A program made the translations under genes and the position numbers. From the NCBI GenBank assembly GCA_003135135.1, contig PLDK01000030.1:2006-66005 (forward strand): a DNA stretch of 64,000 nt, given 5' to 3'. Position 1 is the stretch's first letter. Every line of letters begins with the position of its first letter. This document shows positions 1,462-17,592 of the stretch, piece by piece. The notes under the pieces were generated by a model. That model ran no database searches. It was not told where the DNA came from and saw only the letters and a list, made by a program, of their open reading frames with translations. Source of the stretch: Deltaproteobacteria bacterium (GTDB lineage Bacteria; Desulfobacterota; Binatia; Binatales; Binataceae).

Positions 1462-1561
1462 GCGAACTCGCCCTCGACCATTTCAGTAGCGGGTAAGCTG
1501 TATCAAACGATCACCGTTTTCACCAACCGCTGCGGCAAGCTGGTCAGCGAAGCAGGTGGAT

Positions 1562-2755
1562 CTACTTTCCCGCAGCCATCGCTGACTCGGGCAATTCTTG
1601 CAGCTTCCTCGATTCGTGGCGCTTAAGAATATTGTAATAAGGATCGCGCAGCGCTGCGGTGAAGCCGGCCCCTTCGATGCATTTCACCACGTCACGGAGC
1701 AGCGCCTCGTTTGGGTCGGGCAAATCCTTGCCGGCCGCCGTGATGCAAGCGTTAATCGCGTTGATCGACCCGGTGCCGCAGAGATCGTTTGCTCCTGAGC
1801 GCAGCGCCCGGCTCGCGACCTCGAAGCCCATCGTGCGCCAGACCGCGCGGTGATTTTCGATGTTGTCGAGCGCAAGCCGCGCGACCGCCACATCGCGTAA
1901 GTACTCATTGACGACCGCATCATTATCGGCAGCAGGAGTGGCCCCGTTGAGGCGAGTATGCTCGAGGCGTGCGGGCCATATCTTGTACGCCGAAAAGCCG
2001 CAACCGTAACGGTCCAATCCGCGATCCTGTTGATCGCGCAGCGCGATCAGATGCTGAACGCGTTGTTCCAGCGTCTCGCCGAATCCGATCACCATCCCTA
2101 CCCACGGGTTGTGGAGGCCGGCCTTCATGGTTGAGTCGATGATTCGGAACCAGTCTCCGGTCTTCATCCGCGTCGGCGCGGTGCGTTCGCGCACTTCATC
2201 GACCAGGATCTCGGCGGCGGCGCCGGGCGTGCCATCCAGTCCGGCATCCTTGAGCTCGCAGAGAATATCCCACGCATCGCGGCCGGTCAGCTTCTCCAGA
2301 CCGAGAATCTCCTCGGGGCTGAATGCATCGATGTGGATTTCCGGATAGCGCGATTTGAGGAAGCGCAGCAGATCCAGATACCACTGAAACGGCAAGTCGG
2401 GATTGATGCCGCCCTCGAGCAGAACATCGCGACCGCCGATTTGCCTGAGCTCGTCCATCTGCTCCGCGATTTCATCGAACGTGAGCGTGAAGGCGCCCTC
2501 CTGGTGCCGGGCGCGATAGAACGCGCAAAATCTGCACGCGACGACGCAGATGTTCGTGTAATCGATATTCCCGCCGATGGAATAGGTCGCAATCTCCGGG
2601 TTGCTGCGGCGCAGACGTACTTCGTGAGCGGCAGCCGCCAGATCGTTGGTGGGCAAATCGTAGAGCCCGCGTATCTCGCCGGCGCTGAGCCGATGTCCGG
2701 CAACGGCGCGATCGAGCAGCTTGACGGAAGCATCTTCGTGAGTTGATTGAATCAT
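1562..2755 (-). CDS. CofH/MqnC/MqnE-family radical SAM enzyme (divergent MqnC-like)
   Basis: NIDYTNICVVACRFCAF (CxxxCxxC), GLDGTPGAAAEILVDEVR, ARLALDNI, GAND; start moved to ATG 2755 behind AGGAG. Confidence 0.85.
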   Translation of the reverse strand: MIQSTHEDASVKLLDRAVAGHRLSAGEIRGLYDLPTNDLAAAAHEVRLRRSNPEIATYSIGGNIDYTNICVVACRFCAFYRARHQEGAFTLTFDEIAEQMDELRQIGGRDVLLEGGINPDLPFQWYLDLLRFLKSRYPEIHIDAFSPEEILGLEKLTGRDAWDILCELKDAGLDGTPGAAAEILVDEVRERTAPTRMKTGDWFRIIDSTMKAGLHNPWVGMVIGFGETLEQRVQHLIALRDQQDRGLDRYGCGFSAYKIWPARLEHTRLNGATPAADNDAVVNEYLRDVAVARLALDNIENHRAVWRTMGFEVASRALRSGANDLCGTGSINAINACITAAGKDLPDPNEALLRDVVKCIEGAGFTAALRDPYYNILKRHESRKLQELPESAMAAGK

Positions 2756-2796
2756 CGTAGTTCTCCTGTTTATCGCTGCGCGCCAGTCATGAATAT

Positions 2797-3246
2797 CTAT
2801 TGTCGCCGCTTGTCCGTGAACTCGGACCATGCGCTCATAAACTTATCGGCTCCGCCGCGCGCCATCTTTGCCAGCGCGAAGCGTTCATCGGGATCGAGAA
2901 GCGACCAGCGCTCCTGCGACAGCTTAAGCTCGGCGATTAGCCGCGCAACATCCGGCGGCGCCTGGCCGGCGTCGGGCGCCGCGTCGCGCGATCCGGGTTT
3001 CATGATCGCGAGCTCGGTTCCCGCGCGGGTCTTCACCGCGTCGCGCAGAAAGGCCGCCAGAACGTCGCATTCCTCCGGGGATGCGACCGGGAAGTGGCAG
3101 ATCACCAGGCGCTCGGACCGCGAGAGCGCCTGCCACTCTTTCAAATGGAGCTTCACGCCAGCCAAGTCCAGCTTGCGCCGTACCGACAGCGGTATGAACT
3201 CGAGCGTCTCGTACAACTCCTTTTCGAAGTCGAAGCGCCTGAACAT
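2797..3246 (-). CDS. nitrate-reductase-associated (NarM-like) molybdoenzyme maturation protein
   Basis: FDFEKEL...IPLSVRRKLDLAGVKLHLKEWQALS resembles the Nitr_red_assoc family. Confidence 0.75.
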   Translation of the reverse strand: MFRRFDFEKELYETLEFIPLSVRRKLDLAGVKLHLKEWQALSRSERLVICHFPVASPEECDVLAAFLRDAVKTRAGTELAIMKPGSRDAAPDAGQAPPDVARLIAELKLSQERWSLLDPDERFALAKMARGGADKFMSAWSEFTDKRRQ

Positions 3247-3265
3247 CGGGCTCCCCGCGCGCAGA

Positions 3266-4582
3266 TTACGGCGCAGCTTCAGTCATTGCATTGACGGTGA
3301 AGAAACTCTTGTCCACCGCACCCATGTTGATGTACCAGGACTCGCGCTCGGTGGCGTCCTGTGCGGGGAGGTAACACATGGTGGCGAATCCGGCGGTCAG
3401 ATCATCGATGCTCGCGCCGACCTGGAATACGCGTTTAAACGGGTAAATCGCGACGCGCGCGTCCGCAACGGCGCGATCGCGATATGCCATCCAGGTCAGA
3501 TAGTTCTTCCAGAGTTCACCGGCGCGATTGTAGAAGTCCTGGTACATAATGCATTGGGCCTCGGCATCCAGGTACATGACATGGCGGCCGAACAGCTCGC
3601 CGGGAACCCGGTCCATTCGTGCGCGCCCCTCGACGATGTACATCTGGCGCATTTCCCAGCGCTCTGGACATGCGCTGGCGCCGCCGTCGGTCGGGCAGGT
3701 TACTTCAGGCACGTGAGCGGCGGCGATGGAAGCAAGCATGGGTTTCTCGCCGAGGAGGCGCCAGTTGTAGTTTTCATTCTTGGCAGCGAAGCCCTGAAAA
3801 TTGTCGAGTGACCATGTAATCGCACCGGCCGAGGATCCCAGGAACGCCTCGCCAAGCCTCCTGACTCGCCGATTCCCGGGCATCCAGCCCCAGGTGTCGT
3901 CACCCTTGAGAGGATCGGCATATCGATAGCGGACGAAGCCGCGGCCACGGTCCTCTTGCGGCGCCAGAAATGGATACTGGCCCATCAGCAAAAGCCGCCC
4001 GGTGCTCAGGAAATCGGGGTCCGTGGGCATCGGCTCGACCTCGGTGCGACCGACGAGGTTGTAACTGGCCAGATGGCCAAACTCGTAGTAGTCGATTGGA
4101 ACGTACGGCCGATTCAAGCCCGCGTACTCGGTGATGCAACTGAAGTCGCGCGCATCATAGTCGTCGGTGGAAGTGGGCCGAAACGTGTCGTTCCACATCA
4201 GCTTGGTTCCGGCACTGGGATCGTTCGGATCGATGAACGGGAAGGGCAGGCCGGCCACGTATCCCACCAGGCTCCGATGGTCATTGGAAAGCCGGACCTG
4301 CGAGGAATATTTCTCGGTGGCCTCGCGATACGGCGGAGGCCATTCGATGCGTTCGGTTGGCACGATCTGCATGCTCATCCCGTGGGTTATCCTGAGATAA
4401 ACTCCGGGCGACACCAGCTCCTTGGCTTTGTACGCGTTGTTGGGGGTGATGACGTCTCCGGGCCGCACCTGGGCCACGGCGGAGTTCGGCGCGCTGAGTT
4501 GGGTCAAGAGAGCCAGCAGCGCGATCGCAATCAGTCCAACGAGCGTGGGCGGTGAGTCATTGGGGTTGTTCATTTTGTGCAT
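3266..4582 (-). CDS. DUF1329 family exported protein
   Basis: Signal peptide; PGDVITPNN, YVAGLPFP, DDTWGWMPGNRRVRRL, YNWRLLGEK, WEMR, YNRAGELWK motifs. Confidence 0.85.
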   Translation of the reverse strand: MHKMNNPNDSPPTLVGLIAIALLALLTQLSAPNSAVAQVRPGDVITPNNAYKAKELVSPGVYLRITHGMSMQIVPTERIEWPPPYREATEKYSSQVRLSNDHRSLVGYVAGLPFPFIDPNDPSAGTKLMWNDTFRPTSTDDYDARDFSCITEYAGLNRPYVPIDYYEFGHLASYNLVGRTEVEPMPTDPDFLSTGRLLLMGQYPFLAPQEDRGRGFVRYRYADPLKGDDTWGWMPGNRRVRRLGEAFLGSSAGAITWSLDNFQGFAAKNENYNWRLLGEKPMLASIAAAHVPEVTCPTDGGASACPERWEMRQMYIVEGRARMDRVPGELFGRHVMYLDAEAQCIMYQDFYNRAGELWKNYLTWMAYRDRAVADARVAIYPFKRVFQVGASIDDLTAGFATMCYLPAQDATERESWYINMGAVDKSFFTVNAMTEAAP

Positions 4583-4605
4583 AGGGTACCCTCTGCGCGC
4601 TGCAT

Positions 4606-5628
4606 TCAGCCCCCGAGCACGTGCATCCCCACATTCCCGCGATCCATTGAAGCGGAGCTTTCGACGAAGCCGGGGGACTTATTCCGGATCGCCGCTTCCA
4701 TCCGCGATTCAAGCAATTCTGAATTGACCGTGGGGCGGATCGCGCTTTTGAGATCGACGCCGGTGGGCGAGAACAAGCACGCGAACAGCCTGCCATCGGC
4801 AGTGAGCCGGACGCGATCGCATCGCGCGCAGAACGGATTGGAGATTGTCGAAATCACACCGAGGCGGAAGTGTCCGTTCAAGAGATAGTAGCTCGCCGGC
4901 TCCTCGGTGCGCGCGAGCGGCTCGATCTCGAAATCCCGCTCCAGCAGCGCGACGATCTCGCGCTCGGTGAAGACCTTATCGGCACTCCAAAGACCGCGAC
5001 TGTCCAGCGGCATGAACTCGATAAAGCGCAGAGGGATGCCGGCGCGATATGCCCAGGCAGCGAGCGCTGGAATTTCCGTATCATTGGTCCCGCGCATCAC
5101 GACGGCGTTGAGTTTCACCGGTAGTCCGGCCTCTCGCGCACTGTCGATCCCGCGCAGAACCTCGTGCAGGTCGCCGCCGCCGGTTACCTGGTGAAATCGG
5201 TCGGGAGACAGCGAGTCGAGGCTGACGTTGACGCCGTCGAGGCCCGAATCCGCGAGTTCGCGCGCATACCGCGCCAGCAGGGCGCCGTTGGTCGAGAGCG
5301 AGACGCGTCGAAGGCCGGAGGCTCGCAGGCCGTGGAGCATGGACACGAATCGTGGCGCACCGCTGCGAAGGAGAGGCTCGCCGCCGGTCAGGCGTATCTG
5401 TTCGACTCCGAAGCGAGCGACGAAAACGGTCGCCAGATGATGAAGTTCTTCGAGGCTGAGGACGACATCCTTGGGACCCCAGACCGGACACTCCGGCATG
5501 CAGTAAACGCAACGGAAATTGCAGCGATCGGTCAGCGAGATGCGCAGTTTCTTCATGATGCGCCCGAATCGGTCGCGCAGCTGCGACGGCTGAGTTCGGA
5601 CGGGTGCGCTTTGGTTATCTGGTAGCAC
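4606..5628 (-). CDS. moaA: GTP 3',8-cyclase MoaA
   Basis: LRISLTDRCNFRCVYCMP, RFIEFMP, FCARCDRVRLTADG...C, C-terminal GG. Confidence 0.95.
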   Translation of the reverse strand: MLPDNQSAPVRTQPSQLRDRFGRIMKKLRISLTDRCNFRCVYCMPECPVWGPKDVVLSLEELHHLATVFVARFGVEQIRLTGGEPLLRSGAPRFVSMLHGLRASGLRRVSLSTNGALLARYARELADSGLDGVNVSLDSLSPDRFHQVTGGGDLHEVLRGIDSAREAGLPVKLNAVVMRGTNDTEIPALAAWAYRAGIPLRFIEFMPLDSRGLWSADKVFTEREIVALLERDFEIEPLARTEEPASYYLLNGHFRLGVISTISNPFCARCDRVRLTADGRLFACLFSPTGVDLKSAIRPTVNSELLESRMEAAIRNKSPGFVESSASMDRGNVGMHVLGG

Positions 5629-5705
5629 GGGTCGTCTATCCCATGCGCCGCGCGAACGGCGCGCCGCTCAAGAGAGCTGCGGTCGGTGGTCTCGCGGTCA
5701 GCATC

Positions 5706-6236
5706 TCAGGCACCAAAACCTCCGAAGCGCAGAAAACCGCCAATGACTATAATGATCGTTGACGCGATCACGTTGTAACGCGCCAGACGCTTCATCCACT
5801 TCGCATAGTCCATGGCGTTGGTACGCGAGCCCTCGACCTGCTGACGGCTGGCATCGTAGGGAAGTTTGACCACGACGCGCGGGCGCAGGTAGAAGGTCAG
5901 GATTGCGGCGGTGATTATCAAGGTAAACCAGAGCGTGATCATCGACAGCAGGGCGATGCCGTAACCGCCGAAGAGGAAGCTCGGGTCGAGCAACGACGGC
6001 AAATCGCCCAATCGCCACAGCAGCAGGAGTCCGCTCAGTGGGGATCCGATCAGGGCGATCCAGTTCAGCCAGGCGAAGTCGGTGCCGAGCTTGTCGCCGA
6101 GCCGCGCCGCCTGGCCGGGCGGAATCAGATCGAGGCGCGGGGTCAAAAGGAAATCCAGAAACACATTGGAGCCGACAAACACGGCTGCAAAAAAAAGATG
6201 AAACGAAACCAGAATTTGTAGATCGAGAGATTTCAC
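5706..6236 (-). CDS. 4-TM membrane protein, CopD/DUF4149/HemJ-like
   Basis: Four hydrophobic segments, N-terminal FHLFFAAVFVG; GTGA overlap with upstream stop. Confidence 0.65.
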   Translation of the reverse strand: MKSLDLQILVSFHLFFAAVFVGSNVFLDFLLTPRLDLIPPGQAARLGDKLGTDFAWLNWIALIGSPLSGLLLLWRLGDLPSLLDPSFLFGGYGIALLSMITLWFTLIITAAILTFYLRPRVVVKLPYDASRQQVEGSRTNAMDYAKWMKRLARYNVIASTIIIVIGGFLRFGGFGA

Positions 6237-7348
6237 CTGCCACTCCGATAACTTCCGACTCGAATGGTTTGCACATCATCTGCGAGCGCCTGCGCGCACT
6301 GCGTTGGCTTGCCGCTCACGTGTACGGCGCGCTGCGCCCACTTCCCGCAATAGTCACACTGGTTGCAATCGAGCAAACAATGGTCGTCCTGGAAGAAGCG
6401 CAGGAAGCCATCGAGCTCCGCGCTGTCGATTCGGACGACCAACGGCTCCGGCTCCTCGCCGAAGAGCTTGTGAGGGGGCTGGATGCCGACGAGGAGGCGG
6501 GCGATGTCCTCGCAGTGCCTCGAGTGGTACGCGTTGGCGACCATGGCGATCCAATCGGTGTGCGAGCTTGGTCCCTCTTCCATCTTTTCACGGCCGGCGA
6601 TCTTGAACAGGTCGATGCCCAAGTTTTCGTAGACGCCCAGATCTTCGGGTCTGACCCATGGTGAGCGAAGATGCTCGGCGGCGTCATTGAGTTTGAAAAG
6701 CGAGCAACGGTAGTAGCAGTAGTCGACGTAGTATCGGCTGGTGATACTTTCCCCCGAATGGGAAATCATATTGGAGTGATACTGGCGGATGGGGCAGCTC
6801 AGCAGGCACCCCTCATTGACCACCAGCGAGATACGGCAGCCGACCGCCTTGCGGATCGCCTCGAGACGGCGGAAGTCGCGATTAATCTGGGGATCGAGAT
6901 GAATCACGGTGGCGCCCAGGTCGTCGAAGAATTTCGCCTTGCGGGCGTCGTTGACGGAGGCGAGCACCGAAATGTGGAGCTCGAGAGCGGGAAAATTCTC
7001 GCGCACCAGCTCCATGACGAACGGGTTGGCCGTGACGACAGCCGCTGCGCCGATATCGACCAGCCACTGGAGACGCTGCAAGAGCTGACCGCGGCCTTCT
7101 TCGGAATATTCCTTGTTGCCCAGACAGGTGGCGTTCATGACGTAGACGAGACGAATGCCTTGCTGCGAGGCTTGTGAAACATGGAGCGCGATATCGTCTT
7201 CGCTGGCGTCCGACAGCATCTGCGAGGAGCGAAGCGTAGCCTCGCTCGGCAGGCTTCCGTAAATGTAATCGGGCTTGAACGGCGCAATTTGCGCGATCAG
7301 TTCGGGATCCCAATTGGTCGGGAGCATCAGTTTCATCGGCGTCTCCAT
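6233..7348 (-). CDS. U32 peptidase-family Fe-S protein
   Basis: YVMNATCLGN, NEGCLLSC...CYYRC, VRPED, FKIAGRE, C-terminal CLLDCNQCDYC. Confidence 0.85.
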   Translation of the reverse strand: METPMKLMLPTNWDPELIAQIAPFKPDYIYGSLPSEATLRSSQMLSDASEDDIALHVSQASQQGIRLVYVMNATCLGNKEYSEEGRGQLLQRLQWLVDIGAAAVVTANPFVMELVRENFPALELHISVLASVNDARKAKFFDDLGATVIHLDPQINRDFRRLEAIRKAVGCRISLVVNEGCLLSCPIRQYHSNMISHSGESITSRYYVDYCYYRCSLFKLNDAAEHLRSPWVRPEDLGVYENLGIDLFKIAGREKMEEGPSSHTDWIAMVANAYHSRHCEDIARLLVGIQPPHKLFGEEPEPLVVRIDSAELDGFLRFFQDDHCLLDCNQCDYCGKWAQRAVHVSGKPTQCAQALADDVQTIRVGSYRSGR

Positions 7349-8640
7349 CAGCTCCTGGGGAGTTGTAGCTCGCGGCCGTCGAGCACCTGGCGGAAACCCC
7401 AGTTGACTCTGAGGTCGCCGAGCCAGACGAGGTCGGCGCTGGCGACTCCGAGTTGCTCGCGCAGGCGCGCTTGCAGTTTGGCCGGGTCGTGCGCCTCACC
7501 TTCGATGGCGACGGTCAGGACGCCGGCGCGCGCATTGGCCTCGCGGATCAGCAAGACGTTGCGGCCTACCAGAGTGGGGTCTTCCTCGATGCACATCCGG
7601 ACGTCGTAGGCGGTGATTATCCGGTCGCCGACGAGCACGCTGCTCTCGGGACGTCCGTAAATCTTCAGTCTGCGAAAACCACAACCGCACGGGCATTGCC
7701 CGGGCGCGAATGCGGCAATGTCACCAGTGTCGTAACGCACGAATACGCTCCCGGCGGTGGAGAGCTTGGTAACGATCAGACGACCGCGAGAACCGGGCGC
7801 GACCGGAATGCCGGCATCGTCGAGGACTTCGAGGTAGCAGACGTCCTCGTGCACGTGGGGAGCGGTATGCCATCGGCATTCGTCAATCGCAGCGCCTTCC
7901 TGCGTTCCACCGCGTTCGAAGACATCTTCGACTTCGAGGCGGTCGCGAAGGAACTCGCGCATGCGCGGCGTAAGCGGCAAACCCACGACGACGACCGAGC
8001 GTACTCCCTTGAAAAGCTGGTGCGGCCGATTCGTGGCGCCGTGGCTGCCTCGAATCAGGGAGAGCAGGAACGGCGCGGTGGTCGTGATGAATTCCGGGCG
8101 CTGTGAGGAGAGCGTATGAAGGAAGGAGTCGGTGAACTCGGAGCCCATACTTCCCCAGAAAAACGCGCAGCGCCCGCCCAAGCGTGCGATCGCGTGAGCC
8201 TCGCAGGCGGCGAGACGGTGCCATACCGGGCTCATCAACAGGGCAGTCATCCCGGAGCGGAATCCCGCCCAACGAAAGCCGCGCATCGTCGGCTGTATGT
8301 ATGCTTCCTCTTCCTCCGCGCTCAGCCATACGAGCAGCGGAGCGCCTGAAGTGCCGCGCGTACTGAATGCGACCGGGCCCTGATGCGGATTGGTCCAGCC
8401 GTCACCCGCTTCTACAAGGTCATGCTTTGAAATCGTCGGGAAGCGCTCGAAATCTTCGAGCGAACGAAGCGGCCCGGGTTCGACGCCAGCCCGGTCCCAC
8501 AGTTTGCGGTAGAATGGAACGTCGAAGTAAGCGTGGTTGGTGACCTCGCGCAGACGGCCGGTCTGCCAAGCAGTCAATTGCGCGCCCGAAAGGGTCTCGA
8601 TTAGGTCGTTTCGCGCGCAGCCTGAAGTAGTGTCACGCAT
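7348..8640 (-). CDS. phenylacetate-CoA ligase / F390-synthetase-like adenylate-forming enzyme
   Basis: VPFYRKLW, FPTISKHDL, STRGTSG P-loop, RYDTGD, IYGR. Confidence 0.8.
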   Translation of the reverse strand: MRDTTSGCARNDLIETLSGAQLTAWQTGRLREVTNHAYFDVPFYRKLWDRAGVEPGPLRSLEDFERFPTISKHDLVEAGDGWTNPHQGPVAFSTRGTSGAPLLVWLSAEEEEAYIQPTMRGFRWAGFRSGMTALLMSPVWHRLAACEAHAIARLGGRCAFFWGSMGSEFTDSFLHTLSSQRPEFITTTAPFLLSLIRGSHGATNRPHQLFKGVRSVVVVGLPLTPRMREFLRDRLEVEDVFERGGTQEGAAIDECRWHTAPHVHEDVCYLEVLDDAGIPVAPGSRGRLIVTKLSTAGSVFVRYDTGDIAAFAPGQCPCGCGFRRLKIYGRPESSVLVGDRIITAYDVRMCIEEDPTLVGRNVLLIREANARAGVLTVAIEGEAHDPAKLQARLREQLGVASADLVWLGDLRVNWGFRQVLDGRELQLPRS

Positions 8641-8646
8641 CGCCGA

Positions 8647-9339
8647 TCAAATGCCTCGTCCGCGAGGTGACCATCCGATACACCAGTCGTGGATGCCCGC
8701 CGCACAGTGCGAAGGCCCGAACAGTTCGCCGCGCGACAGGTAGTAGGGCGGCGCGGCGAGGCGGAGGTTGCGAATCATCCGTCCGTCAACTTCGTAGAAC
8801 CCTTCGCGGAGGTGGAAGCAGTCGCACTTGACGCACTGGGGTGCGAGCAGAAGGGCGCTTTCGACGTGCATGAAATGACGCGACGGCTGGAGGCGGACCG
8901 GATTGAGTGCGGGAGGCTCGTCGCCGAACACCACAATTGTCTTCATCGTGCGCTGTGCGAGATCCGCAAATCCCTTTTTGCGCAGCTCCGCCGAAAGCAG
9001 CTCGAGCACGTCTTCTCTGATCACGAGCGCATCGACGCTCAGTTGCGCCAACAGGGCGGGCGTGAGGGTGACCCGCTCCGCGGAAGCGTCGAGGCAAATA
9101 AAGCGGCCATCGAAACGCTCGGCGACACCGCGACGAAGGCCGGGCATCAGCAGACTCGAGCCGAGAAACGAGATGGGACTGCTGCCGTAGTCCTGAACCG
9201 CGATCGTTGAGCCGTCGGGGATGCCCATCATCCGGTAACACCAGGCGAGATGCTCCGCCCAGACGTCGAGGTCTCCGTCGCCGAAGGCAAGCTGGCCGCC
9301 GGGAACGTCGAACAACAGATATGGATTCTCAGTTGGCAC
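8647..9339 (-). CDS. short, degenerate PaaK-like protein
   Basis: GTG start at 9339 overlaps upstream stop; DLDVW...MGIPDGSTIAV and FHLREGFYEV echo the PaaK core, no P-loop. Confidence 0.5.
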   Translation of the reverse strand: MPTENPYLLFDVPGGQLAFGDGDLDVWAEHLAWCYRMMGIPDGSTIAVQDYGSSPISFLGSSLLMPGLRRGVAERFDGRFICLDASAERVTLTPALLAQLSVDALVIREDVLELLSAELRKKGFADLAQRTMKTIVVFGDEPPALNPVRLQPSRHFMHVESALLLAPQCVKCDCFHLREGFYEVDGRMIRNLRLAAPPYYLSRGELFGPSHCAAGIHDWCIGWSPRGRGI

Positions 9340-10561
9340 TCGCGGCTCCCTGGCCGACGCGCGGGATGCCCTGCAGGGCAACCACGCCAACATGATCCAT
9401 CGTCGCGACCTGGTGCGTCCTCAGCGCGGTGCCGATTTTGGCACCGACGTTAAGCGCCGGCTCGACGTAGCCGACCATCGCGGACAGCGCCTCGACGCCA
9501 ACCTCCGCCTGATCGAGCATCTCCCACGGCACGATCGAAACCTTGCCGCTATCCGGATCGATCGGAATCAGAGAGACATTGACCAGCGGAAATCCGTGTC
9601 CATGCGGCGGAATCCAGGTGGGATGAGCGGCGACCAGAGGGCCGACCTCGGATAGTCCCCAGAGCGGAAAGATCGGGCGGCCGCATAGCGCTTCCATATG
9701 CCGCCGCCATCGCGCCGCGAAAGATCCTGTCGATACGAAGACATAGGCAGACTGACTAATCATCGGCGGTATCCGACCGCCCGCCAACATTGCGTCGGCC
9801 TGGCTTCGTTGAATGATCATGTAGTTGTCAGTCACGAAGTCGGTCAACTCGCCGGTGTCGAACTGTTCGAGGCTGGCAAATACAACAGGCTTACCCTGTG
9901 AAATGGCCAGCAAAATACCTGTCAGCATCTCCCACGAGCCGATCACAGGTTCGGTGCATACAAACGGGATCTCGCGCAGCCGGGGAATGAACGCTGCCAT
10001 CGAGGCGGCCATCGCCGACACAGAGAAATGTGAATGCGCGACCAGGCCACGGCCGCTCGGAATCAGTATCGCGGGCTCCGTCGCACGTATAGCTGTTCCC
10101 GCCGCGCTGAATGTCCCTTGCAGTTCGCTCCTGGCGACCATTCTGACGCCCGCGGCTTGCGCAGGCCCGGCGCCATCTGAGGTGATGAGCGCAGAAGCCT
10201 TCCCCTCGGCAAGCCGGGACGCAAGCTGCTCGGCGGAGTCCGCGGGATTTGCGAGCAAGACGCGGCGCCCGGCGAACAAACCGGCAAGGCACAGGCACAG
10301 GCTCTCGAGCGGATCAGGATCGGAGATCGCGATGGTGCCGGTGAGGCCGGCGGCCTGGATGCCGCCGGCCAGACTCAGGCTTTGCTCAAGTAGTTCACCG
10401 TAAGTGATGCGGACATTTTTGTCCACGACCGCGATGCGGTCCTTCATCGTCGCGAATCGCTGCCGGAACAGACGGCCGAGCGGCTGCTGCGCTACCGGAA
10501 CTCGTCGCGGGATGCCTGCAGGCCAATACCATGATGGCAACGCACCGCCGACTTTGGACAT
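9329..10561 (-). CDS. AMP-binding (acyl-CoA ligase-like) protein lacking P-loop and C-terminal domain
   Basis: WPAGIPR, ITYGEL, VAHSH, WGLSE motifs; no TSGTTGxPKG; ends at the hinge. Confidence 0.7.
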   Translation of the reverse strand: MSKVGGALPSWYWPAGIPRRVPVAQQPLGRLFRQRFATMKDRIAVVDKNVRITYGELLEQSLSLAGGIQAAGLTGTIAISDPDPLESLCLCLAGLFAGRRVLLANPADSAEQLASRLAEGKASALITSDGAGPAQAAGVRMVARSELQGTFSAAGTAIRATEPAILIPSGRGLVAHSHFSVSAMAASMAAFIPRLREIPFVCTEPVIGSWEMLTGILLAISQGKPVVFASLEQFDTGELTDFVTDNYMIIQRSQADAMLAGGRIPPMISQSAYVFVSTGSFAARWRRHMEALCGRPIFPLWGLSEVGPLVAAHPTWIPPHGHGFPLVNVSLIPIDPDSGKVSIVPWEMLDQAEVGVEALSAMVGYVEPALNVGAKIGTALRTHQVATMDHVGVVALQGIPRVGQGAASAN

Positions 10562-10563
10562 GA

Positions 10564-13419
10564 CTATCCCTGAAAGGTCGCCTTCTCGTAATCGATGTTG
10601 GTCTGCCTATCGCTCTGTGATGGCGCCCAGCTGAACAGCGTGTACTCGAAATGCCGATAGCCACCGGCAAAGTGGAGCCCTTTGGGCGGGCCAGGCATCA
10701 GGCCGTCCGCGGGCATGCCATTGGGATGCTGATACGGCTCCCAGGCATGGTAGATGACCAACTGATCCGGTCGCACGCAGGCGGACGGCTTCGCTCTCAC
10801 CAGAAATTCGCCGTAGTCGTTGTACACGCGAATGAAGTCGTGGTCCTCGATGCCTTTTTCGCGCGCGGCAGTATTATTGATGAATGCGAACGGCTCGCCG
10901 CGATGCAGCTTCATCATTTCGAGCGAGGTATGCCAATTGGCGTGGATGCTCCACCGGACGTGGCCGCCGGTGATTCTCATGGGCTGATGACCGCCGATGT
11001 CGGGCGGCCGCTTACAGCGGACGAGGGCCTCGTCCGCTTCGACGAAGTATGGGTGATCGATGTAGAACGCGATGCGCCGGGTGGTGGTCGCGTACGGGAC
11101 CTTCAGTTCCACCTGGTCCCTCATTGGCACATGGACCTGGCGCGGCACCATATCCGAGCTCTGGCATACCATTCCGTGCCAGGGCGGACGCCCGCTCAGC
11201 CAGGCCTTGCCGTTCTTGCGCATGTTGGCGAGGTTAACGTCTTCACCGTCAAGGCTGGTGAGCCATCCCAGCTCGCCGAGCGCATGGAGGCAGTCATCGA
11301 CCATGCGCTCTTCGTCGGCGTTGGTCTCGCCATAGCGGTTGCCGTAAGTCGCCCGCCAGTACAGGTCGTCGACGATGACCTCACGGTTTTCGCCGGCCTT
11401 GTACTTTTCGATGCCGCGGGCCTTCAGGTGCTTCGCGATGCTGCCCAACACGCCAAGCGCAATCTGGCGATCCGATCGGGACTCTCCCTGCATCGGTACC
11501 GACTGATCGGTGAAGCATAGCAGCCGCGTGTCGGGCGTCGAGTACTTTACATCCGCGTACTCATAGTAAGAGGCGGATGGCAATACATAGTCTGCATAAA
11601 GACCGGTCGTGCTCCAGCGCGGATCGAAAACGACGATCGTTTCGAGCTTCGGCCATAGGGTCTTTATATAGGTATTCATGCCGCCGCGATGACGGCGCAG
11701 CGGATTCGATCCTGATACGAACATGGCGCGCGGTGTGACTTTCTGGTCGAATCCGTCCCACCAGCCCTTGGCGACTGCGTCTTCGGCGTAGTCACTGATC
11801 TTCTTGTCCGTATATGGATCGTGCAGATGCTTGTCCCAGACTTCCTTGTATCCGGCGTGGCGATACCAGAGAAAAACCCCGGGCGTGAGCGTGCCTGACA
11901 TTTTCAGGCCCTCATGCGCCGTGCCGTTGGCGGCCTCGACCGGCGGCATCGTGGGGTCCATCTTAAGGCGCGTCTTGTAATCCTCCATCATCATCTGGGT
12001 CACGGTCGCGGCCGCGGCGATCGGGTTGTCCGATTCAATCACCTGCTTCGGCATTCCGGAGACAGCCGCCATCGAGGCCGAGATCTCCGTTCCCGGCGAC
12101 CATCCCTGAGTGCCGGTGCCCGGTTTGCCGACGTTGCCGGTCAGCGCAAGGATGTAGCAATACGAGCGCTCGAGCAGATCGCCGTGATAGAGCTTGCCCG
12201 TAATGAAGTTGATATAGCCGAAGATCTTGCGGGGCGGCCGGCAGAGCTCGGCGATCTGCTGGAGCATGTCCGGGTGAACACCCGACATCTCATGGACCTT
12301 CTCCGGCGTATAGCCGTCAAGGCGTTCCTTGAGCAGGCTGAAAACCGATCTGACGTCGAGCTTGGTCCCGTCTTTCAGGCGCACGCTGGTGCGCGTGTCG
12401 AGGGCATAGTCGGCGGCCATTTCAAGCGTGCCCTTCGGCATCTGCACGGGCTGTCCGGTCGCGGAGTCGATTGCATAGAACTGTTCCGGGTCTCCGCCCT
12501 CGCGCAGGTGGGCTTCTGTCAGGAACCGGCCATCATCTGATCGAACCAGGATTGGCAGATCGGTCTGTTCCTTGACGAAGTGCTCGTCGATCCATCCGTT
12601 GTCGATCAGAATCTTTGCTACCCCGAGCCACAGCGCGGGATCCGCCGACCAGTCGATGGGCACCCAGATGTCGGCGAACTGGCATGAAGGATTCTTGTCC
12701 GGTGCGACGGCGATTATCTTGGCGCCGCGATAGCGGGCTTCCAGGATGTAGTGAATGTCTGGAATGTTCGCATACACCGGGTTGGACATCAGGATGATGG
12801 TGTCGGGCAGGAACCAGTTCTCGATGCCGGGCGCGTGATGCATCTCGCCAAAGGTCAGCCACTGGCCGACCTTGAAGTCGCCGGTCACGAAGTCGAGATC
12901 GAAGCTCACTCCACCGAGTAACGAAGTCATGCCGGTGGTCGAGCCTTCTGCGGCGCCGCGAAACACCCCGATGCCGTTGGCGGCGTGGTCGTCAATCAAA
13001 GCCTTGGGGCCGTATTTCTGGATGACACCGGCAATCTTGTCGCCGATTTCCTCGAAGGCCTGGTCCCAGGAGATCTTTTCCCATTTCCCGCTGCCGCGCT
13101 CGCCCGCCCGCTTCATCGGGTGCAGCACTCTGTCGGGTCCGTACATCGCGCGCGAATGTTGATAGCCCTTCTGGCATCCGCGCGGATTGTAGTCGGGCAC
13201 CTTCGAGTCGGGGTCGTCGAACTCCGGATAGGTGCACGAGATCTCCTCGCGAATCACCTTGCCGTCCTTGGCATAGACCCGGAAGGGACAACTGCCGGGG
13301 TAGCAGTTGACCCGATGAGTCCCCCACTTGCAGCTATCCCATTCAAAATATTGGCGCTGCTCCTGCACAGAATCCCGTCTCGCCCCGGAGTTCTGAGGCT
13401 TATCCGATTCGTTTGCCAT
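10564..13419 (-). CDS. type II DMSO-reductase-family molybdoenzyme alpha subunit (EbdA/S25dA-like), paralog 2
   Basis: GTHRVNCYPGSC...PRGCQKG FS0 motif, GDF putative Mo-ligand Asp, GKLYHGDL, GHVRWSIH, YHAWEP. Confidence 0.9.
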   Translation of the reverse strand: MANESDKPQNSGARRDSVQEQRQYFEWDSCKWGTHRVNCYPGSCPFRVYAKDGKVIREEISCTYPEFDDPDSKVPDYNPRGCQKGYQHSRAMYGPDRVLHPMKRAGERGSGKWEKISWDQAFEEIGDKIAGVIQKYGPKALIDDHAANGIGVFRGAAEGSTTGMTSLLGGVSFDLDFVTGDFKVGQWLTFGEMHHAPGIENWFLPDTIILMSNPVYANIPDIHYILEARYRGAKIIAVAPDKNPSCQFADIWVPIDWSADPALWLGVAKILIDNGWIDEHFVKEQTDLPILVRSDDGRFLTEAHLREGGDPEQFYAIDSATGQPVQMPKGTLEMAADYALDTRTSVRLKDGTKLDVRSVFSLLKERLDGYTPEKVHEMSGVHPDMLQQIAELCRPPRKIFGYINFITGKLYHGDLLERSYCYILALTGNVGKPGTGTQGWSPGTEISASMAAVSGMPKQVIESDNPIAAAATVTQMMMEDYKTRLKMDPTMPPVEAANGTAHEGLKMSGTLTPGVFLWYRHAGYKEVWDKHLHDPYTDKKISDYAEDAVAKGWWDGFDQKVTPRAMFVSGSNPLRRHRGGMNTYIKTLWPKLETIVVFDPRWSTTGLYADYVLPSASYYEYADVKYSTPDTRLLCFTDQSVPMQGESRSDRQIALGVLGSIAKHLKARGIEKYKAGENREVIVDDLYWRATYGNRYGETNADEERMVDDCLHALGELGWLTSLDGEDVNLANMRKNGKAWLSGRPPWHGMVCQSSDMVPRQVHVPMRDQVELKVPYATTTRRIAFYIDHPYFVEADEALVRCKRPPDIGGHQPMRITGGHVRWSIHANWHTSLEMMKLHRGEPFAFINNTAAREKGIEDHDFIRVYNDYGEFLVRAKPSACVRPDQLVIYHAWEPYQHPNGMPADGLMPGPPKGLHFAGGYRHFEYTLFSWAPSQSDRQTNIDYEKATFQG

Positions 13420-13436
13420 TTTTTTAGCCTCTATGA

Positions 13437-16295
13437 TTATACAGGGAGAGTTGCCTTTTCGAAGTCAATGTTGGTCTGCCGATCCGACTGCGAAGGAGCC
13501 CAGTTCCACAGGGTGTACTCGTAGTGGCGGTAGCCGCCTGCGAAGTGGAGGCCCTTGGGCGGGCCGGGCAGCAAGCCATCGTAGGGCATCCAATTTGGAT
13601 ACTGATACGGCTCCCATGCGTGGTAGATCACGAGCTGGTCGGGCCGCGTACAGGAACTGAGCTTCGCCCGGGTTATGAAAGAGCCGTAGTCATTGTACAC
13701 GCGGATATAATCATGATCCGCGATGCCCTTTTCCTTCGCGACGGTGTCGTTGATGAACGCAAAGGGCTCACCGCGATGCAGCTTCAACATCTCGTAGGAC
13801 ACTACCCAATTCGAGTGAACGCTCCATCTAAGGTGTCCGCTGGTAAGCCGCAAGGGTTGTGCGCCGCCGATGTTGGGTGGCTGCTTGTAACGGACGAGAT
13901 GCTCGTCGGCCTCGATGAACCATGGATGGTCGAGGTACAGCTCCATTCGCCGCGTAGTGGTCGCGTACGGCACCTTTTGTTCGATCTGATCGCGGAAGGG
14001 CCAGAATATCTGGCCCGAAACCATGTCCGCGTTCTGGACCACGGTCGCGTGCCAGGCGGGGCGGCCGCTCAGCCACGCTTTGCCGTTCTTGCGCAGGTTG
14101 GCGAGCGTGAGCTCTTCACCGTCGAGACTTTCGAACCATCCCATCTTTCCGAGCGCGTTATAGGTGTCGTTTACCAGACGTTCCTCGTCTTCGTTGGTTT
14201 CGCCGTAGCGTCCTCCGAAGGTGCCCCGCCAGTAGAGCTCCTTGACGACGATCTCCCGGTCACCGGACTTGTACTTTTCCACGCCTCGCTTCAGTAGATG
14301 CTCCTGAATGCGTTTGAGCAGCGCGAGCGTGATCTGGCGGTCGGACCTGGACTCGCCGAGCATCGGCACGGTCTGGTCGGTGAAGGTGCTGAAGCGGGTC
14401 GCCGGCGTCGAGTACTTGGCGTCGGCATACTCATAGAACGATGCGGCCGGCAGCGCGTAGTCAGCGTAGAGTCCCGTGGTGCTCCAGCGCGGATCCAGCA
14501 CCACGATTAGCTCGAGCTTCGGCCACAAGGTCTTCAGGTAGGTGTTCATGCCGCCGCGGTGCCGGCGGAGCGGATTCGATCCGGATACCAGCATTCCCTT
14601 TGGAGTGACTTCCTTGTCGGGGTGTACGAACCCCTTCCACCAGCCGTTGGCGAGCGATTCCTCGGCGTACTGGCTGATTTTCTTGGGCGCGTTCGGGTCG
14701 TCCAGGAACTTGTCCCAAACCTCCTTGTACCCGGCGTGGTGGTACCAGAGCCAAACCGGCGGCGAGAGTGTGTTGCCCATCCTTAGGCCTTCACGGAGCG
14801 CACCCAAAGCAGCCTCGGCCGGAGGTATCGTCGGGTCCATTTTGAAATATGTCCGATAGTCCTCCTGTATCTTCTGCATCATATTCATCGCGTGAAGCAA
14901 AGGATCGCCGGTCTCGAGCACCTCGTTGGGCATCCCGCCGACGACGGCGGCGCCGCCGATATACTCGGCTCCGGCCGACCATCCCCGCGAGCCCGTGCCG
15001 GCCTTGCCGACGTTTCCGGTCAGCGCGAGCATGTAGCAGTAGGAGCGCTCGAGCAGATCGCCATGGTAGAGTTTACCGGCGTTCCAGTTGACAAAGACGA
15101 ACACCTTGCGCGGCGGCTTGACGAGTTCGGCCAACTGGGCGAGTTGGTCGGGGTGGATACCCGAAATCTCGTGCACCTTTTCCGGCGTGTATTCAGCGAT
15201 TCGCTTCTTGAGCAGCTCGTAGACCGTCGTGACCTCGATCTGCTTCTTGTCCTTGAGGGTAACTTTCCATTTGCCCTCGAGCGCGTAGTCGAACGGCATC
15301 GCCAGCGTGCCTTTGGGCAGCGGCTCGGGTTTGCCGGTGGCGGTGTTGATTGCGAAGTGCTGCTCCCCGTCTGCGCCCTCGGTTAGGTCGGACTCGCGCA
15401 GGAACCGTTGGTCGTCCATGCGGACCAGCACCGGGAGATCGGTCTGCTCCTTCATGAACTCGAGGTCGACCCATCCCTTATCGATCAGGATTTTGCAGAC
15501 GCCGAGCCACAGCGCCGGATCGGCCGACCAGTTGACCGGGAGCCACATGTCAGCGAACTGGGCAGTGGCATTCTTGTCGGGCGCGATCGCGACCACTTTG
15601 GCCCCGCGATAGCGCGCCTCGAGAATATAATGGATGTCGGGAATGTTGCCGTATGCCGGATTCGAAAGAGCGATGACCGTATCGGCGAGGAACCAGGTCT
15701 CGATTCCCGGAGCGTGCTGGAACTGCCCGAAGGTCAGGTACTGGCCGGGGTTGAAATCGCCGATGAGAAAGTTGAGATCGTAGCTGACCCCGCCCAGGCG
15801 CGACACGAAGCCGGTCGAGGCGCCCTCGCCGCCGCCGCGCAACACGCCGGCGCCATTGGTTCCATGGTCATCGGAGATCGCCTGCGGCCCGAATTTCTGG
15901 ATTATGTCGACGAGCTTGCTGGCGATTTCATCGTAGGCCTGGTCCCAGCTGATCCGTTCCCACTTGCCGCTACCGCGCTCGCCCGCCCGCTTCATCGGGT
16001 ATAGCAGCCGGTCGGGGCCATACATCGCTTTCGAGTGCTGGTAGCCCTTCTGACATCCACGCGGATTGTAGTCGGGCACCTTGTAGTCGGGGTCGTCGAA
16101 CTCCGGATAGGTGCACGAGATCTCCTCGCGAATTACATGGCCGTCCTTGGCATAGACGCGGAACGGGCAACTGCCCGGATAGCAGTTGACGCGATGGGTT
16201 CCCCAGCGGCACTTATCCCATTCCCAATAATTGTCGGGGGCTTGGGCTACCGCCTGGCGGGCCTCGGGATTTTCGTCGCCTTTGCGCTTGCTCAT
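13437..16295 (-). CDS. type II DMSO-reductase-family molybdoenzyme alpha subunit (EbdA/S25dA-like), paralog 1
   Basis: Same motifs as paralog 2; start at ATG 16295 (ATGA overlap with beta-subunit stop). Confidence 0.9.
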   Translation of the reverse strand: MSKRKGDENPEARQAVAQAPDNYWEWDKCRWGTHRVNCYPGSCPFRVYAKDGHVIREEISCTYPEFDDPDYKVPDYNPRGCQKGYQHSKAMYGPDRLLYPMKRAGERGSGKWERISWDQAYDEIASKLVDIIQKFGPQAISDDHGTNGAGVLRGGGEGASTGFVSRLGGVSYDLNFLIGDFNPGQYLTFGQFQHAPGIETWFLADTVIALSNPAYGNIPDIHYILEARYRGAKVVAIAPDKNATAQFADMWLPVNWSADPALWLGVCKILIDKGWVDLEFMKEQTDLPVLVRMDDQRFLRESDLTEGADGEQHFAINTATGKPEPLPKGTLAMPFDYALEGKWKVTLKDKKQIEVTTVYELLKKRIAEYTPEKVHEISGIHPDQLAQLAELVKPPRKVFVFVNWNAGKLYHGDLLERSYCYMLALTGNVGKAGTGSRGWSAGAEYIGGAAVVGGMPNEVLETGDPLLHAMNMMQKIQEDYRTYFKMDPTIPPAEAALGALREGLRMGNTLSPPVWLWYHHAGYKEVWDKFLDDPNAPKKISQYAEESLANGWWKGFVHPDKEVTPKGMLVSGSNPLRRHRGGMNTYLKTLWPKLELIVVLDPRWSTTGLYADYALPAASFYEYADAKYSTPATRFSTFTDQTVPMLGESRSDRQITLALLKRIQEHLLKRGVEKYKSGDREIVVKELYWRGTFGGRYGETNEDEERLVNDTYNALGKMGWFESLDGEELTLANLRKNGKAWLSGRPAWHATVVQNADMVSGQIFWPFRDQIEQKVPYATTTRRMELYLDHPWFIEADEHLVRYKQPPNIGGAQPLRLTSGHLRWSVHSNWVVSYEMLKLHRGEPFAFINDTVAKEKGIADHDYIRVYNDYGSFITRAKLSSCTRPDQLVIYHAWEPYQYPNWMPYDGLLPGPPKGLHFAGGYRHYEYTLWNWAPSQSDRQTNIDFEKATLPV

Positions 16296-17374
16296 GACTG
16301 GCGCCCCTTCCCGGCCTCGACACCCTGCTCGATCGGATCGACCGGAGCCAAGACATTGAACGGGGTGAAGGCGTCCGACCATTTGTAAATGATGAGAAGA
16401 TCCATCAATTCGGATTTTTCGCCGCGCTCGGCGCGTGCGCGATGGTCCTTGAGGGTAACCATCGCCTGGTCAAGACCGGGTCCGAAGTACTTCCGAAGAA
16501 GATCGGCCGGAATATCGGCTTGACCGGTCGGCTTATTCCCGGCTCCGAAAGTCGTTGGCCGAATGAACGGCGGTATGTAGTAAACGTTGGGACCGGTCTT
16601 GAAGTCCGGACGCAGTGGCAGGGCGACTTTGTATTCGTTGACGAGCTTGGCGACGAAGCTCTCCTTGTCGTCCAGGTAACCGAAGTACATCCCGCGTGCG
16701 GGACAGCTCTTGGCGCATACCGGAGCGTAATTGTTCTCCAGCCTGCCCGCGCAGAAGTCGCACATCTCGTAAGTGCCTGCGACGATGTTCTCCATTGGAA
16801 TCTTGTAGGGACATTCCGCTGCACACAGGCCGCATTCGTCGCACGAACTCGGATCGATGACGACGATCCCGTCCGCCTCGCGCTTGTGCAACGAGTTCTT
16901 GTGTCCGTTCCCCTGGCTCGACGGCATGCCGCCGCCTTTGGCGAAGTGCTCCTGGCAGACGGCGATGCAAGGAGCATCCGTGCAGTGATTGCAAAGCCGC
17001 GGCATATAGAAAAAATAACCGTTCGGCCACTCGCCGGCGCCCTGATCTTCTTCCCAGATGGGTCCCCACTTCGGCGGCTCTCCGGTTTCCTTGGTCACCG
17101 GATGCAGGTACTTGGCGCCCACCGGAGAGGTATAGACCTCCTCCCAGTTGAAGTTCCACGTTCCGCCGTAGTCGCGAACCCGGTCCGGAACCTTACGGCC
17201 CAGTTCCATCCATCCCTTGGGCCACCCCTCGCCGGGCTTGGTTTCGCACCATATGTACCGGAGCATCTCGGTGCCGGGATGGTTAAGACGGTGAGTGCTG
17301 CAGGCGACGGTACAAGTCTGACACCCGATACATTTATCGAGGTTGATCACCATCGCGAGTTGTCTTTGGCTCAT
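16292..17374 (-). CDS. Fe-S beta subunit (NarH/EbdB-like)
   Basis: QLAMVINLDKCIGCQTCTVAC, YMPRLCNHCTDAPCIAVC, CDECGLCAAECP, CDFC...CAKSCP, PNVYYIPP. Confidence 0.9.
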   Translation of the reverse strand: MSQRQLAMVINLDKCIGCQTCTVACSTHRLNHPGTEMLRYIWCETKPGEGWPKGWMELGRKVPDRVRDYGGTWNFNWEEVYTSPVGAKYLHPVTKETGEPPKWGPIWEEDQGAGEWPNGYFFYMPRLCNHCTDAPCIAVCQEHFAKGGGMPSSQGNGHKNSLHKREADGIVVIDPSSCDECGLCAAECPYKIPMENIVAGTYEMCDFCAGRLENNYAPVCAKSCPARGMYFGYLDDKESFVAKLVNEYKVALPLRPDFKTGPNVYYIPPFIRPTTFGAGNKPTGQADIPADLLRKYFGPGLDQAMVTLKDHRARAERGEKSELMDLLIIYKWSDAFTPFNVLAPVDPIEQGVEAGKGRQS

Positions 17375-17592
17375 GGCATTGCCTCTCTAATCTTTTATGC
17401 TGACGTAAATGAGACCCCGGTCTCTTGTTCGAAGGCGCTGGCCTTCAATTCGAACGCATCCCGTCGCACCAGGGCGCGTGACCGCACCCGAGCGTGACGC
17501 CCCCCAAGAAGGACGTCTCAGCTGGTATTCGGCTTGAGCATTTCACATCACCGGTCATTCGGAATTCCAATAGCGCGGTCGTGTTTTACGTA

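Follow-up and report, generated by a model that had tools for sequence, protein, structure and literature searches.

A conserved Binataceae locus combines an apparently cytoplasmic relative of EBDH/S25DH-type hydroxylases with a portable five-gene module

How could a water-dependent molybdenum hydroxylase operate in the cytoplasm, and what would the genes around it contribute? This question is raised by a locus at positions 1562-22132 of a 64,000-nucleotide stretch of DNA (the window) from contig PLDK01000030.1 of a Binataceae genome (GCA_003135135.1; 3.73 Mb, 98% complete). According to published descriptions, every EBDH/S25DH-type hydroxylase characterised so far is a periplasmic alpha-beta-gamma enzyme that depends on a delta chaperone and delivers its electrons to cytochrome c (PMC10100899, PMC7411048). 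In the window, two catalytic alpha subunits that make up a distinct, apparently cytoplasmic subfamily of the same kind are encoded together with a beta subunit and a set of accessory genes, and this gene set recurs as a real conserved unit. Whether the locus carries out a cytoplasmic, catabolic, O2-independent and water-dependent oxidation of a lipophilic substrate of the sterol or terpenoid type is, in our judgement, evenly balanced, and this is the reading that we favour.

The core of the locus consists of 12 minus-strand genes (1562-17374; open reading frame (ORF) table, Pfam and NCBIfam), which are separated by at most 77 bases and frequently overlap, in the order beta, alpha1, alpha2, ANL ('amp'), 'short', PaaK, U32, four-transmembrane (4-TM) protein, MoaA, DUF1329, NarM and MqnC/CofH-like. 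An initial annotation, made from the sequence alone, had described 12 co-oriented, mostly abutting genes in this order, and all of them are present; its frame for the 4-TM gene and its starts for alpha1 and 'short' were corrected. The unit reaches further upstream to 22132, where two CrtI-like flavoprotein genes and two SCP2 genes (18009-22132) lie on the same strand in the order SCP2, fad1, SCP2, fad2, separated from beta by a 630-bp gap. Neither these upstream genes nor a diverged copy of the five-gene module (ANL, 'short', PaaK, U32, 4-TM) that occurs apart from EBDH-like enzymes had been noticed in the initial annotation. From upstream to downstream, the genes are the following:

20540-22132, minus strand: fad2, CrtI/CrtO-like flavoprotein, candidate subunit of the CtmAB/delta-24-steroid-desaturase type (Pfam Amino_oxidase/DAO; NCBIfam CrtO 208 bits, cut-off 1000)
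20136-20534, minus strand: SCP2 lipid carrier a (PF02036, residues 164-248 of a 272-aa ORF)
18513-20126, minus strand: fad1, CrtI/CrtO-like flavoprotein, paralogue of fad2 (Pfam/NCBIfam; motif GFWHNLHA)
18009-18482, minus strand: SCP2 lipid carrier b (read from the sequence; PF02036, E 7e-6)
16292-17374, minus strand: beta, four-cluster iron-sulphur (Fe-S) electron-transfer subunit (Fer4_11; TIGR03478 309 bits; EbdB 291 bits)
13437-16298 (ORF to 16382), minus strand: alpha1, catalytic subunit with molybdenum bis-pyranopterin guanine dinucleotide (Mo-bisPGD) (PF00384 and PF01568; TIGR03479 760 bits)
10564-13419, minus strand: alpha2, paralogous catalytic subunit (PF00384 and PF01568; 69% identity to alpha1)
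9329-10561, minus strand: 'amp', ANL-superfamily N-domain protein (PF00501, residues 33-133 only)
8647-9339 (ORF to 9393), minus strand: 'short', truncated PaaK-fold protein of 230-248 aa (fold match; no Pfam match)
7348-8640, minus strand: full-length PaaK-family adenylate-forming ligase (PDB 2y4o PaaK2, E 2e-25)
6233-7348, minus strand: U32-family Fe-S protein of a rare subclade (PF01136, 51 bits)
5706-6236, minus strand: CopD-like 4-helix membrane protein of 176 aa (translation; PF05425 32.1 bits, exactly at the cut-off)
4606-5628, minus strand: MoaA, GTP 3',8-cyclase (TIGR02666 340.7 bits, cut-off 284)
3266-4582, minus strand: DUF1329/LolA-like exported lipoprotein-carrier-type protein, a variable member (PF07044 146 bits)
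2797-3246, minus strand: NarM-like nitrate-reductase-associated maturation protein, a variable member (PF09655 103 bits; TIGR02664 93 bits, cut-off 110)
1562-2830, minus strand: MqnC/CofH-family radical SAM enzyme (TIGR03699 317.6 bits, cut-off 428)

Seventy loci were fetched around relatives of alpha2, and all window proteins were compared with them. An alpha of the same clade (at least 58% identity) was present in 41 loci, 33 of which were assessable (at least 5.5 kb downstream), and in 22 of these 33 the ANL, 'short', PaaK, U32 and 4-TM genes followed the clade alpha in this order. These 22 loci are labelled as Binataceae or 'delta proteobacterium' metagenome-assembled genomes (MAGs) in 19 cases, as Actinomycetota in two and as Gammaproteobacteria in one; one further copy of the operon was found in the metagenome locus L158. 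Because the gene order recurs across differently labelled groups, the gene set is a real conserved unit, and the accessory genes are kept beside homologous alphas; the initial annotation had named a lack of such conservation as a refutation, and it is not refuted on this count. The module adjoins beta in 19 of the 22 operons, that is, in all with upstream sequence, the other three loci starting inside or just upstream of alpha. Of the 20 operons whose sequence reaches far enough downstream, 19 have a match to the MqnC query after the cassette; in L041 the matching proteins are true MqnE and MqnC. MoaA, NarM and DUF1329 are variable members: all three are absent from the Actinomycetota and Gammaproteobacteria versions, and DUF1329 is missing in several otherwise complete operons. 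The 11 assessable loci without the set comprise eight alpha-only paralogues (no beta), two loci of a Sterolibacterium MAG and L019, in which about 10 kb of opposite-strand genes (12845-22841) separate alpha2 from the module and place U32 13 kb downstream. This insertion, in a Binataceae-type genome, holds a cytochrome b (420 aa) and a multihaem/cbb3-type cytochrome c (360 aa).

The number of alphas per operon varied between one (8 loci), two (12 loci) and three (2 loci), so that the twin alpha, regarded as a defining feature in the initial annotation, is not one. Alpha1 and alpha2 form separate orthologue clades within the Binataceae/'delta proteobacterium' rows (alpha2 orthologues: 20 rows, support 100), with single-alpha operons branching below; to judge from this topology, the twin alpha, which was found only under these labels, is a retained lineage-specific duplication.

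The close type is patchily distributed: 9 of 29 other genomes of the same genus were positive, as were 23 of 94 of the family (both types counted) and 2 of 401 genomes sampled evenly across the phylum. A search with 'amp' in a sample of the class Binatia gave 31 of 401 genomes, 17 of them with the close type and 14 with a type of 27-31% identity alone. DNA identical to the operon is present in peat metagenomes, and four metatranscriptome libraries from wetland, soil and peat contained contigs that map onto it at 95% identity or more (best cover in X15, 28 of 30 operon bins), which is not proof of transcription.

Both alphas matched PF00384 (111 and 101 bits for alpha1 and alpha2) and PF01568 (47 and 48 bits). 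The best model for either was TIGR03479, which describes the type II DMSO-reductase subfamily (760 and 724 bits, cut-off 984.75), while the EbdA equivalog reached 580 and 582 bits against a cut-off of 2000 and the NarG model only 204 bits against 1084. Since the best-scoring models all stay below their curated cut-offs, the alphas are a separate subfamily within the EBDH/S25DH kind. The best solved relative of alpha1 is EbdA (PDB 2ivf, E 3e-168), whose molybdenum ligand Asp223 is matched by the D of LIGDF in alpha1, the alpha2 counterpart being VTGDF; the N-terminal FS0 motif H-x3-C...C...C of alpha1 also aligns with 2ivf and its residues are the same in alpha2, and EbdA His192 is not conserved in the alpha1 alignment. 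Beta carries 16 invariant Cys in four groups in an alignment of 13 sequences; its best model is TIGR03478 (309 bits, cut-off 480.7), followed by EbdB (291 bits, cut-off 740). When 122 alphas of the fetched loci were placed in a tree, the Tat-less clade (60 rows) stood apart on a branch 0.84 long (support 100), and in a search of 5.8 billion sequences identity among alpha relatives drops from about 60% to 43%.

Neither alpha1 nor alpha2 has a twin-arginine translocation (Tat) signal. Among the matches listed, no clade alpha (at least 58% identity) carries an RRxFLK motif, whereas SRRxFLK is present in many relatives of about 40% identity (Chloroflexota and Myxococcales MAGs), and this difference supports a cytoplasmic location of the alphas, as predicted in the initial annotation. 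The EB_dh gamma subunit (PF09459) and the NarJ/TorD-type chaperone (PF02613) had no match in the host genome, both searches giving matches in control genomes. Several Chloroflexota loci (L043, L050, L057, L066 and others) have an EBDH-like beta-beta-alpha-alpha arrangement in which a Tat-less alpha is directly followed by a Tat-bearing one, often with SCP2 close by; such pairs may reflect hitch-hiker export or mixed localisation.

The alpha-only paralogues lie amid genes for acyl-CoA dehydrogenases, an SCPx-type thiolase, short-chain dehydrogenases/reductases and full-length acyl-CoA ligases, with an acyl-CoA ligase directly upstream of the alpha in some loci. In the group represented by L027, L029 and L030, a gene of the PEBP lipid-binding family always follows the alpha and Ppx/GppA precedes it, and a UbiA prenyltransferase and an amine-oxidase-type flavoprotein are found nearby. 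These neighbourhoods suggest that lipophilic acids or CoA esters are catabolised.

Upstream of beta, fad2 and fad1 encode proteins of 530 and 537 aa that are 34% identical and match the CrtI family. The delta-24-steroid desaturase of Sterolibacterium denitrificans is described as two adjacent subunits of about 60 kDa related to the limonene dehydrogenase CtmAB, each binding flavin mononucleotide (FMN) covalently at the His of G-F-L/R-X-N/S-T/L-H-A and working with a Mo-dependent C26 hydroxylase in the stigmasterol side-chain pathway (Zhan et al., PMC11061730). Near their N-termini fad1 and fad2 carry GFWHNLHA and GFLHNVHA, each with one deviation from this consensus (W for L/R in fad1, V for T/L in fad2). 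A looser pattern with positions 3 and 6 free was present in 16 of 17 rows examined, and GFWHNLHA is conserved in fad1 orthologues. SCP2 a has a conserved 132-aa core (58-98% identical in 9 loci), SCP2 b is conserved in 9 loci, and the UbiT model scored weakly on SCP2 (20 bits, cut-off 46.9). The fad-SCP2-fad trio recurs upstream of beta in Binataceae-type loci and, at 70, 62 and 73% identity, beside beta-beta-alpha-alpha in the Dehalococcoidia locus L066; an SCP2 gene also precedes beta in one Actinomycetota locus. By motif and architecture, the flavoprotein-pair plus Mo-hydroxylase logic of the characterised O2-independent sterol side-chain route thus appears to be present at the locus. The earlier remark that the gene combination is not recognisable from a described pathway stands in part: this pairing has its counterpart in the Sterolibacterium stigmasterol route, and no publication on the whole gene combination was found in the literature searched, most subscription journals lying outside its reach.

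Of the three ANL-type proteins in the module, 'amp' ends at the hinge, having no C-domain and no T/S-G-x-P-K P-loop, and starts with the invariant MSKVGGA.P.WYWP; its family amounts to 109 clusters, all at least 40% identical, in the database of 5.8 billion sequences. 'Short', labelled PaaK-like from the outset, deserves this name: its AlphaFold2 model (pLDDT 84.7) aligned in Foldseek to the N-domain of PaaK1/2 with query-normalised TM scores (TMq) of 0.64-0.67. It lacks the nucleotide loop and has invariant C34, C169, C172, H176 and C212. The PaaK protein aligns with PaaK2 over residues 6-382, with a P-loop-like TRGTSGAP and a YDTGD motif visible, and scored 91 bits for TIGR02155 (PaaK; cut-off 646) and a likewise sub-cut-off 102 bits for the DVU_1553 family, which by these scores makes it a member of the PaaK family and not a PaaK orthologue.

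The U32 protein belongs to a rare subclade (178 proteins at E<=1e-10 in the same database). It has invariant C181, C185, H191 and C215 and a second motif, C324-x3-C328-x2-C331-x2-C334, and is not an orthologue of UbiU (24 bits, cut-off 440) or TrhP (32 bits, cut-off 534). In the alignment of the 4-TM protein 47 columns are invariant, among them His13 and the loops IPPGQAARLG and LRPR; its AlphaFold2 model consists of four long helices and gave no Foldseek match at E<=0.001, including none to a haem or quinone protein. A complex prediction for beta and the 4-TM protein scored 0.00 (mark 0.32) without controls and counts neither way on binding.

Distant relatives of the U32 protein (28-40% identity, L081-L157) adjoin genes for PlsX, ACP, KAS, FabG, MaoC and a B12-binding radical SAM protein, each recurrent family being present in 14-24 of 78 loci, which suggests that this distant group acts on lipid substrates. 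We rejected the idea that the U32 family generally travels with Mo enzymes: 79 of 80 metagenome loci of these relatives contained no further operon gene above the chosen coverage threshold, bar one 27% MoaA and one 21% fad2 match, and the 80th is the L158 operon copy.

Does the module belong to the Mo enzyme? A diverged version (27-40% identity) in the order 4TM-short-PaaK-ANL, with a convergent U32 gene, was found in eight fetched Binatia loci, seven of which had no alpha or beta match; the eighth, L167, has one 26% alpha2 match about 8 kb away. The diverged proteins retain MSKGA.GL..YWPE and the Cys motifs, and their PaaK has a canonical SSGTxGT loop. In L166 (8693-19857), the one locus scanned, the module lies near two CoA-transferase subunits, a thiolase, nitroreductase-family proteins, an aldehyde dehydrogenase, a Rieske oxygenase and a TetR regulator. 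Four of five genomes with the diverged module (95-96% complete) had no EBDH-like alpha at E<=1e-50. Because the diverged copy occurs in genomes without a detected EBDH-like alpha, the five genes are a portable unit that serves a purpose of its own within catabolic clusters, rather than a device reserved for maturing the Mo enzyme; the earlier view of one self-contained unit needs modifying, in that the module is not specific to the Mo enzyme.

The MqnC/CofH-like radical SAM enzyme falls below the MqnC, MqnE and CofH cut-offs (CofH 211 bits versus 374). No MqnA or MqnD was found in the host genome, which has classical menaquinone genes (MenB and an adjacent UbiA-family gene, MenA) and, on another contig, the F420 genes CofG-CofH-CofD-CofE, from which the host probably makes F420. 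Menaquinone or F420 synthesis by the MqnC-like gene was rejected for this genome on these grounds, and the initial suggestion that the accessory enzymes build a dedicated redox carrier or modified cofactor found no support. The F420 contig (C8; L076:5457-15729) carries an MlaE/MlaF/MlaD-type lipid transporter, then CofG, CofH, CofD, CofE, a polyprenyl synthetase and an FAD_binding_3 oxidoreductase. In the Gammaproteobacteria MAG (L041:17737-21543) the cassette is directly followed by true MqnE and MqnC (above cut-off) and two VitK2_biosynth (MqnA/MqnD-type) genes. NCBIfam describes NarM as maturing the cytoplasmic nitrate reductase, and a role as cofactor-insertion helper in a genome that lacks NarJ is plausible from its family. 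The DUF1329 protein starts with a hydrophobic, signal-like stretch.

With regard to gene calls, long Arg-rich ORFs overlie real genes in this 61% GC DNA and would be taken by a purely ORF-based annotation. A 193-aa ORF (5698-6279) was discarded as the 4-TM gene, being an Arg-rich wrong frame, and the 5706-6236 frame is kept at 55-87% identity across loci. The 135-aa ORF at 17887-18294 is another Arg-rich wrong-frame read, and the N-terminal half of the 272-aa SCP2 ORF (20535-20954) is an Arg-rich over-extension of a gene whose real start lies near 20534. Alpha1 most likely starts at Met29 (about 16298), because this residue opens the conserved N-terminus and relatives measure 948-954 aa, and the start of 'short' is probably the GTG at 9339. 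A fusion of 'short' and PaaK as one ORF in L031 was rejected, a stop codon lying between them. A promoter and terminator scan of 1300-18700 was uninformative (one promoter-like site, shuffle mean 5.2; 16 terminator-like sites, mean 14.0). The flanks (2-1461 and 23343-41142) hold unrelated housekeeping and sugar genes (GH38 N-domain, ROK kinase, PTS EIIA-HTH regulator, Bmp-family binding protein, RNase II, phosphofructokinase, luciferase-like monooxygenase) and several ORFs of 230-437 aa without a Pfam match.

From this material we infer the following order of steps. The substrate would be the alkyl or isoprenoid part of a sterol side chain, another terpenoid or a branched lipid on the cytoplasmic side, with the SCP2 proteins holding the lipid. 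The putative covalent-FMN pair of the CtmAB/delta-24-desaturase type would desaturate or allylically hydroxylate it, and alpha1 and alpha2 would hydroxylate C-H bonds with water at the Asp-ligated Mo centre, each alpha pairing with the single beta and electrons leaving via FS0 and the four beta clusters. The separate, portable five-protein module would act at the membrane, where its PaaK member may adenylate the resulting or incoming carboxylate (CoA-thioester formation) and the U32/4-TM pair may perform a further redox or O2-independent oxidation step. MoaA and NarM would supply and insert the Mo cofactor in place of a NarJ-type chaperone, and DUF1329 could help uptake.

Several points weigh against such a route. 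The accessory genes track beta and not the alphas, none of nine alpha-only loci with enough sequence having them (eight delta-, Binataceae- or Actinomycetota-labelled paralogues and L034), and such linkage to beta would also be consistent with a general function in the production or re-oxidation of the enzyme. The Sterolibacterium MAG, of unclear completeness, has clade alphas and beta, but gave no U32, ANL or fad2 match with the queries used. With an ANL protein that lacks the P-loop and a truncated 'short', only one of the three adenylation-type proteins looks catalytic. The likeness of fad1 and fad2 to CtmAB and the delta-24-steroid desaturase is one of motif and architecture, not of direct alignment. 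Which acceptor an organism with menaquinone alone could use for an oxidation near 0 mV is a further difficulty. Moreover, PaaK-type ligases yield AMP and pyrophosphate. The ATP-dependent step of the Sterolibacterium cascade is described as using a phosphate ester (PMC7411048), which differs from these products and makes the analogy loose.

For the role of the five-gene module we rank substrate activation with a further Fe-S-dependent step first, followed by electron exit, maturation and biosynthesis. In its boldest form, which we consider doubtful, the module would be an unrecognised portable membrane machine that couples ATP-dependent adenylate activation to Fe-S, O2-independent lipid oxidation and that, docked to a gamma- and delta-less EBDH-type enzyme, lets water-dependent C-H hydroxylation run in the cytoplasm of a menaquinone organism. 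Electron exit seems unlikely; in this reading the U32 and CopD-like 4-TM proteins, on a scaffold of the ANL-like proteins, would replace gamma or cytochrome c by a non-haem path and connect beta with the quinone pool, much as NarI serves NarGH. Such a path would suit a host genome without gamma, the two conserved Cys clusters of U32, the conserved hydrophilic loops and invariant His of the 4-TM protein, and the place of the module beside beta in every operon with upstream sequence (19 of 22). It has to contend, however, with a diverged module whose host genomes, in four of five cases, lack a detected EBDH-like alpha, with three ANL-type proteins that would be pointless for electron transfer, and with a 4-TM model that has no structural match to haem or quinone proteins.

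The same independence of the module bears on maturation, in which the ANL trio, U32, 4-TM, MqnC-like, MoaA and NarM proteins would provide a modified Mo cofactor or a NarJ substitute for a Tat-less type II enzyme, and it makes this role quite improbable, as do a Sterolibacterium MAG that has clade alpha and beta and in which the module was not found, and the absence of MoaA, NarM and DUF1329 from the Actinomycetota and Gammaproteobacteria versions. On the other side stand a genome without a PF02613 chaperone, the presence of MoaA and NarM in the operon, accessory genes that occur once per genome beside beta with the extra alphas scattered, and an ANL family (109 clusters) and close U32 subclade about as rare as the operon. 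Very improbable, finally, is a biosynthetic unit for O2-free modification of a membrane lipid, quinone or pigment (for example hydroxylation of an isoprenoid chain or ring), with the MqnC-like and U32 proteins building or decorating the molecule. Characterised U32 enzymes are described as hydroxylating ubiquinone precursors and RNA (PMC11574389), the SCP2 proteins faintly recall UbiT, distant U32 relatives reside in fatty-acid-synthesis clusters, and the Gammaproteobacteria cassette abuts futalosine genes; yet this adjacency occurs in one locus only, the operon is patchy within the genus, the alpha paralogues and the diverged module lie amid beta-oxidation and CoA-transferase genes, and the host already has MenB/MenA and CofGH.

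A well-separated clade without Tat, gamma and delta and with its own conserved partners, present in Binataceae and in MAGs labelled Actinomycetota or Gammaproteobacteria (peat, soil and groundwater), widens the known range of water-dependent C-H hydroxylation in place and manner, and it raises the bioenergetic question of which intracellular electron acceptor is used. The locus offers candidate genes for O2-independent steps of sterol and terpenoid turnover in soils, and the five-gene module with its rare U32 subclade is a defined, testable target; should the portable membrane machine be real, uncultured bacteria that abound in soil and peat would have a new architecture for activating C-H bonds in the anaerobic manner. 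S25DH-type enzymes are reportedly already used for the production of 25-hydroxyvitamin D3, so that a cytoplasmic form that dispenses with gamma and delta might lend itself to easier expression.

Compared with known systems, the Binataceae enzyme resembles NarGHI in being an apparently cytoplasm-facing type II enzyme whose alpha-beta part would be served by a small membrane protein; nitrate reductase, however, has a dihaem cytochrome b in NarI and cannot do without NarJ, and neither family is present in the Binataceae locus. With UbiU/UbiV (and UbiT), TrhP and RlhA the locus shares PF01136 and SCP2 nearby, and its U32 protein has conserved Cys in the putative cluster-binding region, but the locus differs in its single U32 gene, instead of a pair, with an extra C-terminal CX3CX2CX2C, in the 4-TM gene that always follows and in the three ANL-type genes that precede it. 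The adjacent paralogous phytoene-desaturase-like flavoproteins with a G-F-x-x-N-x-H-A motif recall CtmAB of Castellaniella defragrans, a comparison of motif and architecture only, with CtmAB as described in PMC11061730; in the Binataceae locus, in contrast, SCP2 genes are interleaved. From EbdABC(D) of Aromatoleum aromaticum (2ivf) the enzyme departs by scores far below the equivalog cut-offs (580 versus 2000; 291 versus 740), by a His192 that is not conserved in the alignment and by the lack of gamma, delta and Tat, while the Asp Mo ligand and the FS0 His/Cys motif are kept and beta resembles EbdB. The S25DH/S26DH system of Sterolibacterium denitrificans has Tat, a haem b gamma and an essential delta, none of which the Binataceae enzyme has; the latter belongs to a separate clade, at about 40% identity to the nearest other relatives found (S25dA/S26dA being compared by description only), and comes with five extra conserved genes without a counterpart in the described pathway. 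Both systems nevertheless have a type II alpha and beta with several alpha paralogues that apparently share electron-transfer subunits, both have paired CrtI-like flavoproteins of about 58-60 kDa, those of the Binataceae locus each with a candidate histidyl-FMN motif one position off the consensus, and both would follow the same logic of a lipophilic isoprenoid substrate that is subsequently passed to CoA ligation and beta-oxidation.

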